This document shows, piece by piece, positions 47,579 through 62,300 of a DNA stretch of 64,000 nt (position 1 is its first letter; each line of letters starts with the position of its first letter). The notes under the pieces were generated by a model. It saw only the letters and a list, made by a program, of their open reading frames with translations, ran no database searches and was not told the origin of the DNA. Source of the DNA: a virus; the IMG/VR virus record IMGVR_UViG_3300042465_007464, positions 1 through 64,000 of that record; one strand, given 5' to 3'. Made by a program: the position numbers and the translations under genes.

Positions 47579-48211
47579 TTAAATTATTCTGCATTTACCG
47601 TCTTCGCATAAAATTGAAGTAATAAGTTCATTTACACGTGCGTATTTGTTTGTTTTAACTGTTTTATCTACTGACTCGTGCATGTGCGTAGGCCGCATAA
47701 AAGCCCCATGCGTTGAAGGATTTGATACAAAGTCCCAACATATCAATTCAAAGTCTTCTTGAACTTCAACCGTACCCTCACTGCGTAATTCTTTTACGGA
47801 ACCTAATCCACGGGATGAAATGCCTAATGTGATACCAGCTTTAAAAAGTTCTTTAAGAATTTTTCCTGACGGAGTTTCTAGTATTTGTACTGCTCCTTTT
47901 AAATCATCACCATCCCACCATATTTTTAGTACATTATGAGATACGTTGTTCAAGTTTACTACGGAAGATTCTGGATGATCCAATTCTCCTAGTGCACGAT
48001 GCTGTTGTATGAATTCTTGTTCATATCGTCTACATTCGCGTTCTAGTATGTTTCTTGGATAGATTCTACCATTTTGATTTTTTGCTCCCGCACGTTGTAA
48101 AACTCCTTGAACTACAAAACCACCAGGTATCCCATATGCAGCCCCACTCGATTCAGTAAGTGAACCAATCGGACGAAATGGCATATATTCTACTATTAGT
48201 TGTTTTGACAT
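47579..48211 (-). CDS. Prohead protease (gp21-like)
   Basis: N.NGR.YP, GELDHP, VSH, TP.G, GISSRG.GS and D.V..PS. Confidence 0.96.
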   Translation of the reverse strand: MSKQLIVEYMPFRPIGSLTESSGAAYGIPGGFVVQGVLQRAGAKNQNGRIYPRNILERECRRYEQEFIQQHRALGELDHPESSVVNLNNVSHNVLKIWWDGDDLKGAVQILETPSGKILKELFKAGITLGISSRGLGSVKELRSEGTVEVQEDFELICWDFVSNPSTHGAFMRPTHMHESVDKTVKTNKYARVNELITSILCEDGKCRII

Positions 48212-54691: not shown

Positions 54692-55462
54692 TTATTCAAC
54701 TTCATTGCTTACATTTGCTAATGCAGCCAAGTTTTGAATTATTTTTTTACGTAATAATACATAAAACGTTTTCGCATCTTTTGGATCTACTTCTTTAGTT
54801 AATTTATCAGCTACATTCATTAATGCAGTAACTTGTTTAACCGTTCCGTCAGATTTTAAACTATCAATGAATTTTTGAGTATTGATTGCTTCTTGTTCTG
54901 CAGGTTCTATTTCAGGTGCTGGAGCTGGAGCAGCTGGTGCTTCTGGTGCAGGTGCGGCAGTTGCATCTGGAGCAGGAGCTGCCATTGGATCCGCAGGAAC
55001 TTCTTCTGCCGACGGTTCTTCAATTGGCTCTTCTGCAGGTACGGCTTGTTCTGCTAACACACGTGCAATTTTTCTACGTACATATTCACGTATCACTCGT
55101 TCTTTTTGTTCACGAGTTAGATTTTCAATTTTATCTTTCAATACGTCTTCAACGCTTTTTTCTTCATCGTCTTGACGTTTCTTAAGACGTTTTGCTGCAG
55201 TTTTAGGATCGTAATCTGCATCTTCTAAATCTTTGTATAAACGATCGTCTGCTTCATATTTCGGAATCATTTTTCCGTCATCTTGCATCTCTTTGTCAGT
55301 TTTACGAAGAACGTTAAGTTGTTTGTCTTTTGTAGAATTCGGATTCATTCCTCCATCTTTATCATCTGTAGTATAATCTTTAATGTCTTTGCGAGGTTTT
55401 GGTTTTTGTGATTTTTCCAAATCCTTTGGTGCTTTGTATTTGCTTTTGTGTTTGTCAGCCAT
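54692..55462 (-). CDS. Hypothetical late protein with Pro/Ala linker
   Basis: Late motif at 55483-55491; IRE...VLAE followed by an APAP linker. Confidence 0.7.
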   Translation of the reverse strand: MADKHKSKYKAPKDLEKSQKPKPRKDIKDYTTDDKDGGMNPNSTKDKQLNVLRKTDKEMQDDGKMIPKYEADDRLYKDLEDADYDPKTAAKRLKKRQDDEEKSVEDVLKDKIENLTREQKERVIREYVRRKIARVLAEQAVPAEEPIEEPSAEEVPADPMAAPAPDATAAPAPEAPAAPAPAPEIEPAEQEAINTQKFIDSLKSDGTVKQVTALMNVADKLTKEVDPKDAKTFYVLLRKKIIQNLAALANVSNEVE

Positions 55463-55494: not shown

Positions 55495-56076
55495 TTAAAC
55501 AGATTTAACCGATTTTTTATTTAATAACGCTTTTGAAATATTTTCAGAATGTTTTGCAGTTCGCGGTGGTTTCTTTTTATTTTTAAGTGACTTACTAATA
55601 TTAAGTTTATGTTCATCACTCATTGGCCCACGACTTAAACCAGATTTACCTTTATTCCATGGAATGCGCCCCTTTCCAGCTTTAGAAATTTTTTCTCGAG
55701 TTTCTATAGAATATTTAACGGTTTTTCCTTTATTTTGTTTACCTAATTGTTGTACAATCATTTGTTGCAGTTGTTTACAACGACTATATTCTTTCGAACT
55801 AATGATATAATTTCGTTCATGTTTTGAACTTTGATGATTCATCATTCTCCATAGTGCATAATGCAATTTTGTTTCGTTAAGATAAATTTCACAAAGAAGT
55901 TTATGTGCTATGAAATGTTCTCGAGCTGTAAGTAATACTAAATTAGTTTTATTATTTCGTCCATTTAAACATTTAGGAACGATATGATGTCGTTCGAAAT
56001 ATATGCCGCGACCTTTTTTACGATTCTCAGATTGACATCGCGCTATTAATTGTTCGTATATTTTTTTATAATTCAT
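55495..56076 (-). mobile_element. Free-standing HNH homing endonuclease with NUMOD3-type repeats
   Basis: ERHHIVPKC..G.N...NLV.LTAREH..AH.LL and S.ET..KIS....G..PWNKG. Confidence 0.9.
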
Positions 56077-56083
56077 TACTAAA

Positions 56084-59000
56084 TCATCGTGCGTACTTTA
56101 ATACTCCTAGTAACTGATTTACTGGCGCAAAAGCACCTGTCATTTTATATGTATGCCCCTTGTACACAAATACTATGCCTTCTGCTGGTATTATGGCATC
56201 AAATCCTCCAAGCCGTTGTATACGGCGTAATTCCAATTCCAATTTAGATATTGTAGCAGGATTACCTGTTGCTTGTAAATCTTTGATAAGTTCTGCCAAT
56301 TCCGTTTTAATTTGCTGAACTGTTTTATCTGGATTTGCGGCAAGGAAGTTTTCTGCATTTTTCATTACAACTACACCTAATCTTAAAAATATAGATTCAA
56401 ACGGTTCTAAGTTTTGTTTGCGATACGCTTTGAAATCTTTTTTATCGAATTCAGTTACCCATGCGGCAAATTCCGGACTTGCAATTTGTTTTTTAAGCAT
56501 GGCAATATTAGTTGATTTATCATCAAATGACCAACGCAATACGAGTGCATTTAAAACATCTTCTGGAATTTGATATCCCAATTCTTGTGCTTTACTTGCA
56601 ATAACATCGCGCCACCATGCTTTATGATATTCGCGAATCATGTCCTGATCTTTTAATCCGTAACGTTTTTCTAGTTGTTCTATTTCTGCAAAAAATGCTG
56701 CTTGTTGATCTTCGAAATCCACAGCACGTCCCATTTTGATGCGTTGCGGTGGAATAAATGAAAATGTATTTTGCATATGTGCATTTGCATCTTGTATGAT
56801 TCGTTGCATCATTGCGCCCCCACCTAAATCCGTTTCTACAGTATTACCGGCTTCATCATATTCTACTAAATTGTGAAATTGAAGATGTGCTTTGTCATAT
56901 GATATTACGTTTCGAGTTGCTGGATATATTATTTCCATGTTAGCAAATACTCTACCATTTTTGAATATTTGTGCTAATCGTTCTGCAGGTATTTGACGCA
57001 TTGCTTCCGTTAAATCTTCTGCACACGCACGATATGCATCTACGACACGTTGATAATTTGCTCCAGCATCTGCACCATTCTTTTGTGTAGTCTCTTGTTG
57101 TTTGCGTTCAAAATCTGCAATCAATTGATCTGGAGTCATTGGATTAATGATAGTGCCTTTGTTTCTGGCAAATCCTGGCTGTCCATCTTTCCAAGTAACT
57201 TGAATGTTTTGTCCATCAGTTTTTTCAGAAACGGCTTCTTCCATGTCTAATCGACCCGACAATGCACGTGCTACGATTTCTTTCATATCACCAAATGTCA
57301 GTCCGTGATCATCCCATGGATGTGCCATATGCCCTGCTGCGCCTCCGCAAACTAATAATTGTTTAGTTTCGTGTTCAAAAATCATTTCTTGCAATTCGAT
57401 AAAAGAAATAGATGATTTTATATTTTTTGTTTCATTGATTATACTAGGCAATATTTCTAAATTACAGAAATGTGCAATAATATTTGGATCAACATTATTA
57501 ACAAATCCATCGAATATTGAATATTTATGATCTAAATGAAATTTTTTACTTCGTTTCTCTATATCTTTTATTTGATCTTTATATTGTTTTATAGTACGTT
57601 CTGATAGTTTTCTTACTTCATCGCGATATCTAATATATTCTGGTTTTTTATTTGGATCTAAATATCTACCAGATGCATATGCTCGAGTTCGAATTTCTTC
57701 TAATTGTTTTTTCGCGCGTACGATGTTGTGTGGTAATGCTGCAGCATTTGTTACGTTATATTTTTCAAGTAATGTTTTACGTTGTTTTTCAATATTATTG
57801 AAATTCGAATCTCCATACTTATTAAGTTTTGTTTGTTTTATTTTATCTACTAATTGTATATCATTCATTGGATTATTTTCAGATAAGCTTATTCGTAATG
57901 AATCTGAAATAGTTTTTGAATCCGGGAATTGTTTTTTATATTCATTAATTGTAGTTTGATGTTTGAACTTTAAATGATTAGGGGTAATTTGTTTCATAGA
58001 AATGCCACATAATTCACATTTTACGCCTCCTTCTGTTAAAAGTTGTCCTTTGCCCATTGCCGATTCGATACGACTGATACGATAAATAACATCATCTGGA
58101 TCGTTAGATTGCCAGTCTCGACTTTGTGATTTGATAGTACGTGGAATTAATTTAATTTTTCCTTGTTGTCTGTCAAATTCTAATTGGAATGGCATATGTA
58201 TCGGAACATCAAATTTATAATCAGATTCTACACCAGTTAGTTGTTTATTTATAAATTGATCTCTAATTTCTTCACCATATCTATCTGCTAAGTCTTGAAA
58301 TAATAGTTCTAAATCATCCAAACTAATCGGGTCTTCATTTCTAGGATTATTTAATTGATCAATAAAATGCGTAGTTTCGCCTTGAAAATCAACATCGATG
58401 CCATAATCATGAAAGAAACGATCTATGATGGGTTCAATTTCTCGAAGATCCTTGCGCGTAATGTAATCTTCTTTTTCATTGATAATACTTTCAACTAATT
58501 TAGCACCAACCACTGTCTTTGCAAATTTATCAAAATCATATACAAATGATTCGCCGCGATGTTTATCTAAAAATGCACGAAGATGTTTTATTTTTGCGGC
58601 GTGACGTGCCTTCTCTTTTGGAAACATCATGGATTCAACAACATCTTCAACATCTTCTTGCAATTGCGTTTTCCACCACGCTGTTGAAAAAAGTGCAGCT
58701 TCTTGAACTCCGGTTAATATCTGCCAAGCATTTTTTACCGTAGCTTCATCTTGTTCCGGATATGCGTAACGAAATTCGTCATAATTTCTAGTTTGCAATG
58801 CTTGACGAACGTTGGTTGCTGATATCGGTTCTCCCGTTTCATATGTTAATGGCTCAACATCAATCGGCAGTAATGTTGCATCAATACCCGACGGAATTTG
58901 TCGTCCTTTTTTATCTCCAATTGTAGCATATTTGTCTACATTAGGAACGAAATCCATTGCACGAACATAATCATCTCCTTTTTTAGATGCAGCCATTGCA

Positions 59001-59281
59001 TATCGTCCTGTTGCATCTTGCGGCAATGCAAATAAGTATTCATATGCGGCCATGATAGGCGAATTGAATTCGGTAGGTTGCATTTCAATTTTTGGATCTG
59101 AATTCATCAGGTTGAACATTTGCATACTCATTTCGCGAGTAATTCCGTCTCGTTCTTTTGGCCCAATCAACATGATAACACGTCCAACTTGTGGATCTTG
59201 TGCGTAGCGTTGTGCTAATGCTAAATGTGCTCCTGTTAATGGTTTGAATCCTCCCGGGAAAAGTACTGTTATTTTATCCAT
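56084..59281 (-). CDS. Multidomain late protein: HIGH-type nucleotidyltransferase, spacer domain, inserted HNH, ATP-dependent ligase-fold domain
   Basis: PGGFKPLTGAH and ISATNVR at the N-terminus; EKTDG...NMEII...EGIVF...YK at the C-terminus; late motif at 59297-59305. Confidence 0.75.
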   Translation of the reverse strand: MDKITVLFPGGFKPLTGAHLALAQRYAQDPQVGRVIMLIGPKERDGITREMSMQMFNLMNSDPKIEMQPTEFNSPIMAAYEYLFALPQDATGRYAMAASKKGDDYVRAMDFVPNVDKYATIGDKKGRQIPSGIDATLLPIDVEPLTYETGEPISATNVRQALQTRNYDEFRYAYPEQDEATVKNAWQILTGVQEAALFSTAWWKTQLQEDVEDVVESMMFPKEKARHAAKIKHLRAFLDKHRGESFVYDFDKFAKTVVGAKLVESIINEKEDYITRKDLREIEPIIDRFFHDYGIDVDFQGETTHFIDQLNNPRNEDPISLDDLELLFQDLADRYGEEIRDQFINKQLTGVESDYKFDVPIHMPFQLEFDRQQGKIKLIPRTIKSQSRDWQSNDPDDVIYRISRIESAMGKGQLLTEGGVKCELCGISMKQITPNHLKFKHQTTINEYKKQFPDSKTISDSLRISLSENNPMNDIQLVDKIKQTKLNKYGDSNFNNIEKQRKTLLEKYNVTNAAALPHNIVRAKKQLEEIRTRAYASGRYLDPNKKPEYIRYRDEVRKLSERTIKQYKDQIKDIEKRSKKFHLDHKYSIFDGFVNNVDPNIIAHFCNLEILPSIINETKNIKSSISFIELQEMIFEHETKQLLVCGGAAGHMAHPWDDHGLTFGDMKEIVARALSGRLDMEEAVSEKTDGQNIQVTWKDGQPGFARNKGTIINPMTPDQLIADFERKQQETTQKNGADAGANYQRVVDAYRACAEDLTEAMRQIPAERLAQIFKNGRVFANMEIIYPATRNVISYDKAHLQFHNLVEYDEAGNTVETDLGGGAMMQRIIQDANAHMQNTFSFIPPQRIKMGRAVDFEDQQAAFFAEIEQLEKRYGLKDQDMIREYHKAWWRDVIASKAQELGYQIPEDVLNALVLRWSFDDKSTNIAMLKKQIASPEFAAWVTEFDKKDFKAYRKQNLEPFESIFLRLGVVVMKNAENFLAANPDKTVQQIKTELAELIKDLQATGNPATISKLELELRRIQRLGGFDAIIPAEGIVFVYKGHTYKMTGAFAPVNQLLGVLKYAR
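57340..58030 (-). mobile_element. 684-nt in-frame insertion encoding a Zn-finger/HNH endonuclease, bounded by GGAGGCG direct repeats
   Basis: CELC...H....H finger, KQTKLNKYG repeats and HLDHKYS...NL.....N; repeats at 57340-57346 and 58024-58030. Confidence 0.75.
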
Positions 59282-59317
59282 TACATTTTCTTTTTATATA
59301 AATATATTATTTTCATA

Positions 59318-62300
59318 TTATGCAATTTCGTAACTACCATTCCAAATAAAACGATCGGTGTTTGCCCAAGTAAATGGTTGAGTTGCATTTACATCTAATG
59401 CTGTGCTACCAGTTGATTGGTATTGTATTGCTGTTTTATAATTAAATCCAGCACGTGCACCATTTAATAGGGCATTATACCAAGCAGAACCATTATCTAA
59501 TAAATTTGCTGACATTAATATAGCATCTGCATGTGATGCAGTAAACGGCATCGATACATACCATTCTCCAGATCCAAACGTTGTAGTTGAACCCATTACT
59601 ATGTTGCCTCTAACAAAACATGTTTTACCGACTAATTTATACCACCCTTGTAATGATCCATTTCCAATTGCAGGATTTGAAGATGCGGCTGTCCATGACG
59701 GAGTATATGATGTCCACGCAGTTGTTATGTCTGATCCATTTATCGTTACAGATCCGGTAGATACTATAGATCCTGTTACTCGCAATGATCCAGTAACTAA
59801 AACGCTACCCGTTACATCTAAATTTGCAGATGGTGAAGTTTTACCAATACCAACATTACCTGCAGTATCTATGATAAACGGCGTCGTATCTGGATTTGTT
59901 GAATCTTCTACAAGGAATGATGCTGATGTAGATGTATTGTTGATATGTAATTTTGCCGTTGGTGGATATGCATCGTCACCCATTCCAACGTTACCGTTAG
60001 CCATAATTTGCACCATGGAACTAGTGTAGTTTTGGAACACAAATAAAGGTCTTGTTGATGAACTGGAGATTGCTGTATTATTTGCATATCGAGCTCCCAT
60101 TGATATAAGAGCCGATGTTCCAGTGTCATCTGTTGTTTGTATACGTGTTTGTATACCTAATGCAACTGTGTTTGACCCACTTTGAATTCCTCGTATAAAT
60201 GGAGAAAACACACCGTTAGCAGTAGTACCATTAACTATGTCTAAATATCCATCTGCATCTTGAACTTGTGCTTTGAAAACGTTTTCTGCATTTGCCGATC
60301 CAGATGCAGCTTCTATAGTTAATGGATACGATGATGATGTCGTACGAATACCTATATTACCATTACCTAGCAAAGTCATTGTAGGACGACGTATGCCGTT
60401 ACTACCTACATTTGCAAACATTATTCCACCATCAGGAGTGGTGCCATTGAAATCAGTTTTTTCTATGATTAACCCATCGCCTGAACCTACAGCACCGTTA
60501 TCTTCATATTTAAAACGTGCACCATCTGCCGCAGGAATTCCTGATGATGATTCTGCACCGAAATACAATGCTACATCCCCTACAATACCAGCACGTATTG
60601 AACCACTGACATCTAATAAAGTACTAGCCGGTGGAGTTGTAGTACCAATACCGATATTACCAGCAGCTGTCATCGTCATATAAGTTGTGCCGTTATTTCT
60701 CCATTGAAACAATGGACGGGTTGCGGCTGCGACGGATGAAGCATCAGTTCCAATTCGACTATCAAATACCGTTATTGGAGTTGTTCCAGAATCTACAGCA
60801 CCTCTACCTATTAAAAACGATGCAATTTGTGTTGTTGAATTTTGTCCTAGTATAGTTGGAGTGAAAATACCGTTAGTAGTCGTTCCATTTTGAATTCTTA
60901 AGTAACTGTCAGTATCGTCATCTACTTGGAATCTAGCAATATTTTCTTGTGTACTAGCAACGGCGCTAGTTTGTACATTAAATTGTACTCCGTCGGCTAA
61001 TGCACCAATACCAACTTCTCCAGAACCGGATATCGATAATCTTGGAAAATTATTTGTAATAAGTAATAAATTTCTATCTACAACATTTCCAAAAATAGTA
61101 TTTGTAAGTGAACTATAATCCAATGTTCCAATATGTGAAGATGAGCTCGATTCGATTTGAATTACTGGTCCGTCAGTTTCTAAATTCCGTATATACAATA
61201 TCCCATTTGGATTAGAAACTGATGACGTAAGATAAAAAAATTGAGGATATAATATCGGAATATTAGCATATCCGCCGGCTGGAGATACTTCTAATATTTC
61301 AGATACTTCTACTATGTGTGCAAATTGACGAAATGTTTGTAATGCATTTTCATAATGATTACTTAAATAACTAACAGTCCAAAATTCTGCACTTTGTAAC
61401 AACGTTGCTCGACAATTATAATCTAATGGCATAACCACGCCATCGTAATTTGTTCCCGCAACAGTTGCACGTCCTCTTTGAAATGCAATAGAATAGTTAT
61501 CGTAGCCATCATTGCCTTGAATGTACGAATCGGGCATATTTGGATGTGGTGCATTTTTAGCAAGGTATATCTTATTTGTTTGCGGATATTCCGATTCTAT
61601 AACAATAATTGACCCATATGAACGATATTGTCCAGACGACCCCCAAGAATCTGGATGTATTTTTATAGCACCTATAGGATACATTGTTTGTGATCCGGTA
61701 GAAAAGTTAGCTGGAAATTTTACGAACATTGCCGGCGAGGTACTTCCTGTGTAATTAGAATCGTGACTGCCAGTTAAATTTAAACACATATATGTACGAC
61801 CGCCATACGTATATGTTGACAAATGCGGATCCGAACTACTACTGATTTGTACTACTCGATATACATATAAATCTGCAGTATTAGTTCCTCGAAAATCGCC
61901 ATTACTAGCAGTAATATTTCCTGCACTATCTAAATGAAATCCACTTGATGAAATTTCAATATTACCATTTGCGCCTGATATAAACTGATTAGAACTACCT
62001 ACAAAGAATTTATCCGTACGGATATCTAATTCCGAATCTCGAGTTGAATAACGAAGATAACTTGCGGTATTCGCATACAATTCAATACCTACACCACTAT
62101 ACGCAGCGCCTTTACTTGTAGAACCCGATAATGCAGACCCAGACCATATTAAGAATCCCGGATTGCCTGCATCGAACCCTGTATACCCTAAGGATCTAAC
62201 ATATCCCGTGTTACGTTGTCCGGTAATTGCAATACCTGAACCTAATGCGTCAGCTACATACAATGAACCAGTTATCATAGAATAATCGCCATCTATGTAA

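Follow-up and report, generated by a model that had tools for sequence, protein, structure and literature searches.

To our knowledge, a homing endonuclease inside a gene is thought to be harmless only with an intron or an intein. Free-standing phage homing endonucleases split or adjoin their targets, as do the Mob and Seg enzymes of T4, MobE in the nrdA gene of Aeromonas phage Aeh1 and the mobA-gene 60 cassette, and the translational bypass of T4 gene 60 spans a gap of 50 nucleotides (nt). The closest published case to the element described below is the ShiLan domain, which together with the Pacc40 insertion represents the 'hidden HNH' elements in DNA methylase genes of actinobacteriophages (Arsenault, Gosselin & Gogarten 2025, PMC11855218; Gosselin et al. 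2023, PMC9957025). A different frame encodes the HNH of ShiLan, from a GTG start to a TAA stop of its own, and translation in the host frame does not give a nuclease (PMC11855218). Here we analyze a block of 228 codons that lies in frame within an enzyme gene of a T4-like phage, in the IMG/VR virus record IMGVR_UViG_3300042465_007464 (positions 1 to 64,000; this whole stretch of 64,000 nt is the window). We believe, with a probability of roughly 0.7, that the block is a site-specific HNH homing element living unspliced and in frame as a tolerated extra domain of the host protein.

Like ShiLan, the window element interrupts a phage enzyme gene in frame and without a stop, has a sporadic, homing-like distribution and shows no detectable intron or intein; both are proposed to remain in the protein as a tolerated extra piece. 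It differs from ShiLan in that its HNH is in the host frame, the nuclease itself being a domain of the host protein, and in its conserved junction-duplicating tail, its wide site-specific distribution and its visible scars. With inteins that bear homing endonucleases it shares an in-frame position at a fixed site by a catalytic motif of a conserved enzyme, and a sporadic occurrence as site-specific 'alleles' in divergent hosts. Unlike inteins, it has no Hint domain, no Cys or Ser as first residue and no terminal His-Asn plus nucleophile; removal from the protein is not expected. The free-standing phage endonucleases likewise combine HNH with NUMOD-type modules, and the closest homologues of the insert are free-standing proteins of 236-248 amino acids (aa). 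Those enzymes start and stop independently of the host gene, which remains whole or is split into pieces, whereas the window element is fused to the host frame at both ends. The block shares with the T4 gene 60 bypass a repeated GGA codon, one at each border; in contrast to that case, the take-off codon is not followed by a stop, the gap measures 684 nt and not 50, and the repeat is not conserved in related occupied alleles. Translation as an extra domain in a permissive linker beside a conserved motif would be a third route to harmlessness, used at scale and little described.

The host gene and the parts needed for the argument are as follows.

56084-59281 (-), host gene: NMNAT-like domain, variable middle region, HNH insert, RNA-ligase-like domain
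58697-59281 (-), N-terminal nucleotidyltransferase domain (predicted), residues 1-195, with the HxGH-type motif TGAH
58025-58696 (-), variable middle region, residues 196-419, delimited by a sliding identity profile
58025-58042 (-), native junction motif LLTEGG, residues 414-419, upstream copy
57341-58024 (-), in-frame insert of 228 codons: C2H2 finger, NUMOD-like helical repeats, HNH core, 12-residue tail
56087-57340 (-), RNA-ligase-like C domain (predicted), residues 648-1065, with GGAxGH (646-651) and KxDG (687-690; nt 57212-57223)
58024-58030 (-), 7-bp direct repeat GGAGGCG, upstream copy
57340-57346 (-), 7-bp direct repeat GGAGGCG, downstream copy

In the list of open reading frames, 56084-59281 on the minus strand is uninterrupted and comprises 1065 codons plus a stop, the insert included. 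The original prediction, made from the letters of the window, had described a stop-free block of 684 nt or 228 codons between LLTEGG and AAGHMAHP. The translation of 57329-58054 (-) agrees exactly: it reads ...GKGQLLTEGG, then VKCELCG...KQLLVCGG, then AAGH, and the 228 codons of 57341-58024 hold zero stops. The block is also AT-richer than its surroundings, as had been seen, with a GC content of 26.2% against 37.1% and 38.0% in the two flanking host parts. As for the GGAGGCG repeats said to flank it, both copies are present, but they are a by-product of two Gly-Gly codon pairs, and they are absent from the occupied alleles of the L060 type, which read GAATCA/GTA at one border and GGTGGC/GCC at the other. 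A target-site duplication was rejected because these other occupied alleles lack the repeat. A blastn search of the host gene against the phage collection gave no match.

Empty alleles of the same gene are found in close relatives. Three proteins of 832 aa (P0003, P0004 and P0006) are without the insert and read GKGQLLTEGGAAGHMAHP; they are 98% identical to the window protein over the best local alignment and 91-94% overall. At the insertion site itself the insert-free, 98%-identical alleles read LLTEGGAAGHMAHP. In the DNA of a related locus (L001), the equivalent of window position 58026 is joined directly to that of 57346, with nothing between. The insertion-free alleles that the original prediction expected among relatives thus exist, and the domain is not common to all homologues, as most relatives are insert-free.

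The insert occurs in 4 of the 143 related loci from viral and metagenome contigs (L060 and L082-L084), all of one phage type. Further occupied proteins are P0002, P0005, P0007 and P0008, the last having a host of the short class without the middle region. A scan of viral contigs with the insert gave only one distant relative, and the occupied loci came from the scans with the host gene. Of 121 near rows, 6 are occupied alleles, counting a fragment of the window itself, and a distant clade has 3 among 120. A Cys before GG, the label of an occupied or scar allele, is present in 9 of the 121 rows, three being deletion scars, and on the ligase-domain tree of these 121 near relatives the label needs at least 6-7 changes. 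The window, P0002, P0005 and P0007 each have an empty nearest neighbour at a C-domain distance of 0.005-0.03, and the four occupied clades are 0.3-0.4 apart.

The histories of element and host do not coincide throughout. The insert is more alike than the host in the pairs P0005/P0007 (89% against 72%) and P0126/P0132 (76% against 49%). The reverse is found for P0125, where the insert is 41% identical and the host, which is close to the window's group, 64-67%; overall, insert and host identities are correlated (r 0.81). About 20 cluster representatives match the insert to its last residue and then pass at once into the ligase domain (AxGHM), and the ligase domains of these representatives are just 25-40% identical to the window's. 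Site polymorphism and discordance between element and host history are features of mobile homing endonuclease genes, and both are observed here. What appears to be new is the same element at exactly this site in relatives whose ligase domains have diverged that far, together with its LLxCGG ending, the occupied and empty pairs in four host clades, the insert identities that exceed those of the host in some pairs, and deletion scars that consist of the tail only.

Aligned with the 98%-identical empty alleles, the window protein shows 97-100% identity in residues 1-195 and 100% over some 250 residues after the insert, but just 60-85% in residues 196-419, which adjoin the insert. In this protein-level comparison the one-sided divergent tract resembles a co-conversion tract, which is only suggestive. 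Among the sampled proteins no close donor for residues 196-419 was found.

In three near relatives, different in-frame deletions have removed the nuclease body and spared the tail. P0105 retains about 11 residues ending LLVC-GG, P0103 two N-terminal and 11 C-terminal residues, and P0077 the last 37 or so residues; P0103 and P0077 fall in the clade of the occupied P0007. In the distant clade, P0422 and P0434 keep only ...NPLDTRILLQC-GG. The scars indicate that selection preserves the host frame and that the host protein can carry a Cys at the junction without the nuclease. With them, the empty, occupied, degenerating and scarred alleles in metagenomes would represent all stages of the homing cycle.

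A further group in the distant clade, 11 of 120 relatives (P0404, P0416, P0431, P0460 and seven others), reads WW..LTE, then about 14 residues, then LLLM-GG, with no nuclease. These two-copy proteins may represent old scars of deletion or traces of a different element.

The tail that remains in the scars is the following feature.

57341-57376 (-), element tail EHETKQLLVCGG, ending in LLVCGG (Cys645 of the protein), absent from free-standing relatives

At the native junction motif (58025-58042) about 110 of the 121 near relatives (empty alleles) have (L/I)(L/I)xEGG. The junction residue of empty alleles is Glu in 104 of 120, and in all near-family 6-mers except LLVCGG. The tail LLxCGG is found in 24 of 25 divergent occupied proteins; one exception has Ala for Cys, and another, in a protein from a later search, has Gln. 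In the distant occupied relatives the tail is followed by A(A/Y)GH(M/L), and the upstream native motif is kept to varying extent (LLKEGGSAGH, LLTEGGAY, LLTEG). The element thus appears to carry a second copy of the host junction in which Glu is replaced by Cys. That the 3' end rebuilds a degenerate copy of the linker, LLVCGG for LLTEGG, had been noticed for the window alone and is conserved far beyond the window phage.

The tail Cys is conserved as strongly as the catalytic residues. The explanation that we prefer has two parts: the junction position may need Glu or Cys, possibly as a ligand near the His/Asp of GHMxHPxDD, and reversion to a Glu codon would recreate the target of the nuclease.

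The insertion site marks the boundary between variable sequence and the most strongly conserved coding DNA of the gene, bordering the invariant GGAxGH. The table of junction conservation is in part a product of the search pattern, and the four occupied loci are among its rows; its information is confined to positions beyond +26 and upstream of -6. Other modules occupy the same linker. A 39-residue zinc ribbon with a double CxxC lies just before the junction in alleles of 871 aa (P0011, L022 and L003). In L127-L129 (L127:4201-4878) an in-frame module of 226 residues with a glycine-rich loop lies just before GIITEGG-LGGHM, and its match to a protein-kinase N-lobe is weak (Pkinase E 0.011, below threshold). 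From the tail-only alleles and the other modules in the same slot, the linker before GGAxGH appears simply to tolerate insertions.

Two parts of the insert carry recognizable motifs.

57959-58018 (-), candidate ROS/MucR-like C2H2 zinc finger, insert residues 3-22 (C3, C6, H17, H22), the four residues invariant in the insert alignment
57422-57547 (-), candidate HNH (beta-beta-alpha-metal) core, HLDH...N...N, insert residues about 160-201

The ROS_MUCR match to the finger is weak in the insert (E 0.009) and above threshold in relatives. In the core, D165, H166, N188, N197 and K200 are invariant among 49 homologues. D165-H166, N188 and N197 correspond to the HNH pattern of a catalytic His preceded by Asp or Glu, then a conserved Asn and a metal-binding Asn or His. 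When the insert was folded alone with its alignment, AlphaFold2 (AF2) gave a predicted local distance difference test score (pLDDT) of 93.5, with strands at 162-166 and 189-193 and then a helix at 194-200. The best fold matches to the HNH part are HNH nucleases, but they are weak: 4h9d with Z 4.6 (65 residues aligned), followed by BrxU (Z 3.9), the HNH of Cas9 and I-HmuI (Foldseek E 6.5).

Foldseek with the insert model returned nothing at E<=0.001, and the insert profile had no match among PDB sequences. None of the Pfam HNH models matches the insert, and HNH_4 was found in just 1 of the 49 homologues (E 0.0011); DUF7487, ROS_MUCR and NUMOD3 are the Pfam matches of the insert and its homologues instead. 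The insert also matches phrog_5104 at 1.5e-11. Motif and weak fold evidence together point to an HNH nuclease, in line with the HNH/Zn-finger gene of homing-endonuclease type, in frame and without intron or intein, that had been predicted. An exhaustive HMMER search of 1.84 billion cluster representatives gave 2634 relatives of the insert, and its homologues carry NUMOD3. The free-standing ones start at the finger (V.C..C) and end about 12 residues before the end of the block. Therefore the block would be a whole endonuclease of the free-standing type without its own start and stop, plus the tail.

The insert is under purifying selection in the host frame. Against the L060 copy it has a nonsynonymous divergence (dN) of 0.18 and a synonymous divergence (dS) of 1.0, giving a dN/dS of 0.18; the ratio is 0.19 for the ligase domain and 0.24 for the N part. 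Such selection, which is like that on the host, would also be expected if the HNH module were a working domain recruited by ordinary domain shuffling into a modular enzyme of RNA/DNA repair or anti-defence, and were not selfish. The position kept across relatives of 25-40% identity, the conserved tail Cys, and the kinase-like, zinc-ribbon, Tad3 and P-loop kinase modules that the slot also holds in relatives are consistent with such a recruitment. We nevertheless consider it unlikely, as only a few percent of alleles are occupied, the occupied alleles of four clades have near-identical empty partners, the insert is more alike than the host in some pairs, and the nuclease body was repeatedly deleted in frame. 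The closest relatives being free-standing homing-type endonucleases with NUMOD3, the AT-rich composition and the location at the edge of the most conserved coding DNA also argue for a homing element.

Known routes of removal were searched for as well. Rfam covariance models over 56000-59400, both strands, gave no intron family at E<=10, and Pfam gave no match to Hint, Intein_splicing or PT-HINT on the 1065-aa protein; the same Hint-type models do detect true inteins in the relatives P0162 and P0164. Both searches agree with the absence of Hint motifs and of a ribozyme core claimed beforehand. The insert model is helical plus beta-beta-alpha, with no Hint fold. The insert begins with Val (or Gly-Gly-Val) and ends with Cys-Gly-Gly followed by Ala, which fits neither the nucleophile nor the His-Asn of inteins. 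An intein was rejected on the missing Hint family, the wrong terminal residues and the fold of the model, and an intron because no Rfam family was detected and the whole block is coding and selected in frame. Translational bypass was rejected because no stop follows the first GGA GGC codon pair, the repeat is absent in the L060 type, the gap is 684 nt and the insert is coding and selected.

An unrecognised route, such as a non-canonical intron, a bypass between the GGA GGC pairs or self-cleavage at the Cys of LLxCGG, would give a role to the matching GGAGGCG repeats on both sides and to a Cys that is conserved like catalytic residues and occurs only in occupied or scar alleles; Rfam, moreover, is limited to described ribozymes. 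This appears very unlikely to us. The findings against intron, intein and bypass just given apply here too, including the L060-type occupied alleles without repeats; 684 nt is well above known bypass lengths, and we know of no translational bypass near that size. In addition, the residue preceding the Cys is variable, and the scar alleles keep the Cys without the nuclease. It is also unlikely that the element is released from the host enzyme, or regulates it, after translation and without a Hint domain, by cleavage at the Cys of LLxCGG or by a phage protease. If so, the tail would act as a portable patch: it would restore the N-terminal boundary of the ligase domain, make the occupied allele immune to the nuclease and persist as a drive-resistant scar after nuclease loss.

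The nature of the host protein bears on the protease in question. Among 5.8 billion proteins searched, >1400 were related to the host protein; the majority do not have the insert and are about 830 aa or about 685 aa long. Residues 1-195 are modelled by AF2 at a pLDDT of about 88 and align to NMN/NaMN adenylyltransferases and PPAT with VIA-align Z 12.2-11. Foldseek gives E 1e-4 to NMNAT/PPAT-like nucleotidyltransferases for this part, and PF01467 is found in relatives. The C domain (residues 651-1060; pLDDT about 87) matches six RNA-ligase families with Z 8.2-6.8 over about 185-205 residues, namely 8.2 for Naegleria Rnl (5cot), 8.0 for the Trl1 ligase, 7.4-7.6 for REL1 and T4 Rnl2, and 7.0 for T4 Rnl1. 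In an alignment of 81 sequences reaching down to about 20% identity, no columns are invariant other than GG..GH (646-651), K687 and G690 of KxDG, and one Tyr.

KxDG, the nucleotidyltransferase fold and the moderate Z scores suggest an RNA-ligase-like C domain with a predicted ligase activity, whose Atlas neighbours carry DUF6267. The models thus describe the host as a modular enzyme of RNA-repair type, NMNAT-like plus RNA-ligase-like, and not as a demonstrated structural polyprotein. PDB sequence searches with both host halves gave no match, and nothing useful was found in the literature on DUF6267 or on a fusion of NMNAT and RNA ligase. Distant relatives add P-loop kinase domains (AAA_33, Zeta_toxin), and one adds a Tad3 domain.

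The original prediction had placed the block at a polyprotein cleavage junction from which the head protease of the phage would excise it. In its full form, the host would be a polyprotein cut at (L/I)xE by a protease of the gp21 type, with the nuclease freed at LTE-GG and IFE-HE and possibly packaged and delivered. The phage does encode such an enzyme, given here as context.

47579-48211 (-), T4 gp21-type prohead protease gene (PF03420 Peptidase_S77, E 8.9e-32)

The cleavage consensus of T4 gp21 is (L/I)xE, and LTE-GG at the 5' junction matches it; almost all empty alleles have the Glu of LLxEGG, and the upstream copy of occupied alleles often keeps it. The host gene is located among late genes of a T4-like phage that has genes for a gp23-type capsid protein, the Peptidase_S77 protease, portal, terminase and sheath. 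Despite this, the cleavage claim gained no support. The host domains are enzyme folds, the N terminus opens directly with a Rossmann motif and has no obvious targeting peptide, and nothing was found that marks the host protein as a prohead component. The protein has 18 copies of [LI]xE where chance would give 11.8, and 3 of [LI]xE[AGS] where it would give 2.0, so that the motif count is near chance. The 3' junction is LLxC-GG, with no Glu, and no conserved Glu-containing site was found in the tail across distant relatives. The same family and junction also occur in very diverse phages with kinase or other modules, which may or may not encode such a protease. Excision by the protease is unsupported, and we regard it as highly improbable.

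For a homing element that stays in the protein, the following course may be proposed. An endonuclease reading frame of the free-standing type would have lost its own start and stop codons and gained the 12-residue tail ending LLxCGG. It would be hosted by the variable, insertion-tolerant linker before GGAxGH, and therefore the two enzymatic domains of the host could still fold. The nuclease would be made by translating the host mRNA. In a mixed infection it would cut empty alleles at or near the uninterrupted coding sequence of LLxEGG-AxGHM, and recombinational repair would copy the element into the cut allele. Protection of the occupied allele would come from the interrupted site and from the Cys codon that stands in place of the Glu codon. 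The nuclease body could later be deleted in frame, with the tail left as a scar.

Several points weigh against this explanation. The HNH call rests on the invariant motif and on fold matches of which even the best is weak, the Pfam HNH models staying below threshold, and we infer both the activity of the nuclease and that of the fusion protein. AF2 applied to the full-length protein gives the insert and both junctions a pLDDT of 25-49, too low to tell how the domains pack or which of LLTEGG and LLVCGG joins the ligase fold. The presence and absence of the insert in near-identical backgrounds could reflect loss rather than gain, and the 7-bp repeats of the window phage would permit its precise deletion. 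Between the window and L060, the dS of the insert (about 1.0, against 1.06 and 1.33 in the flanks) also fits a long vertical co-residence. The divergent tract upstream has no identified donor and is non-monotonic, and it may be ordinary mosaicism. Simple tolerance, finally, does not explain the near-invariance of the tail Cys.

If the block is a tolerated homing element, it would offer a natural system for studying how selfish nucleases become domains, how alleles resist a natural gene drive, and where enzymes accept the insertion of a large domain. It would also flag a very large uncharacterised family of phage proteins (nucleotidyltransferase, optional kinase, RNA-ligase-like) as a hotspot of mobile elements.

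Some relatives of the host protein show further variation. In the short class of roughly 685 aa, about residue 265 runs straight into GGAAGH, with no middle region. The optional middle part (58025-58480, residues about 266-419, roughly 150 residues) has KLVES on one side and LLTEGG on the other, the kind of duplication also found around the HNH element; in L089 the two copies stand in tandem (KLLEG-LITEGG) with nothing between, and L046 is another case for the optional middle region. P0030 (980 aa) has a further optional module of roughly 148 residues, which is inserted behind residue 218 of the N region and contains a GDS-type motif. The distant, occupied P0128 has Tad3, a type I Thoeris inhibitor (PF25185, E 2.6e-23), and DUF5661 upstream of the HNH element, which hints that the host family may serve anti-defence. 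A Tad3 identity for the middle region of the window was rejected, as it has no detectable similarity to P0128.

In P0140, P0162, P0164 and P0141, this ligase domain is interrupted immediately behind the Lys of KxDG by true inteins (Hint, Intein_splicing); they lie 35-50 residues downstream of the HNH element, and some genes carry both kinds of element. Around 3990-4001 of L021 the frame changes between the N region and the ligase domain, and a stop immediately precedes DLTEGG; a frameshift, a misassembly or a genuinely split gene could each account for this. Several proteins of 414 aa start, according to the gene callers, at the Met of GHM.

Two further genes were noticed between the host gene and the terminase region of the window. 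The one nearer to the terminase region, at 54692-55462 (-), encodes an acidic, Pro/Ala/Glu-rich low-complexity protein of 256 aa with no family match. The other, at 55495-56076 (-) and directly downstream of the host gene, is a free-standing HNH-NUMOD3 homing endonuclease gene of 193 aa (phrog_655, E 1e-41). L001 is without it, and there the next gene comes right after the stop of the host gene; this HNH gene is an independent insertion of about 590 bp.

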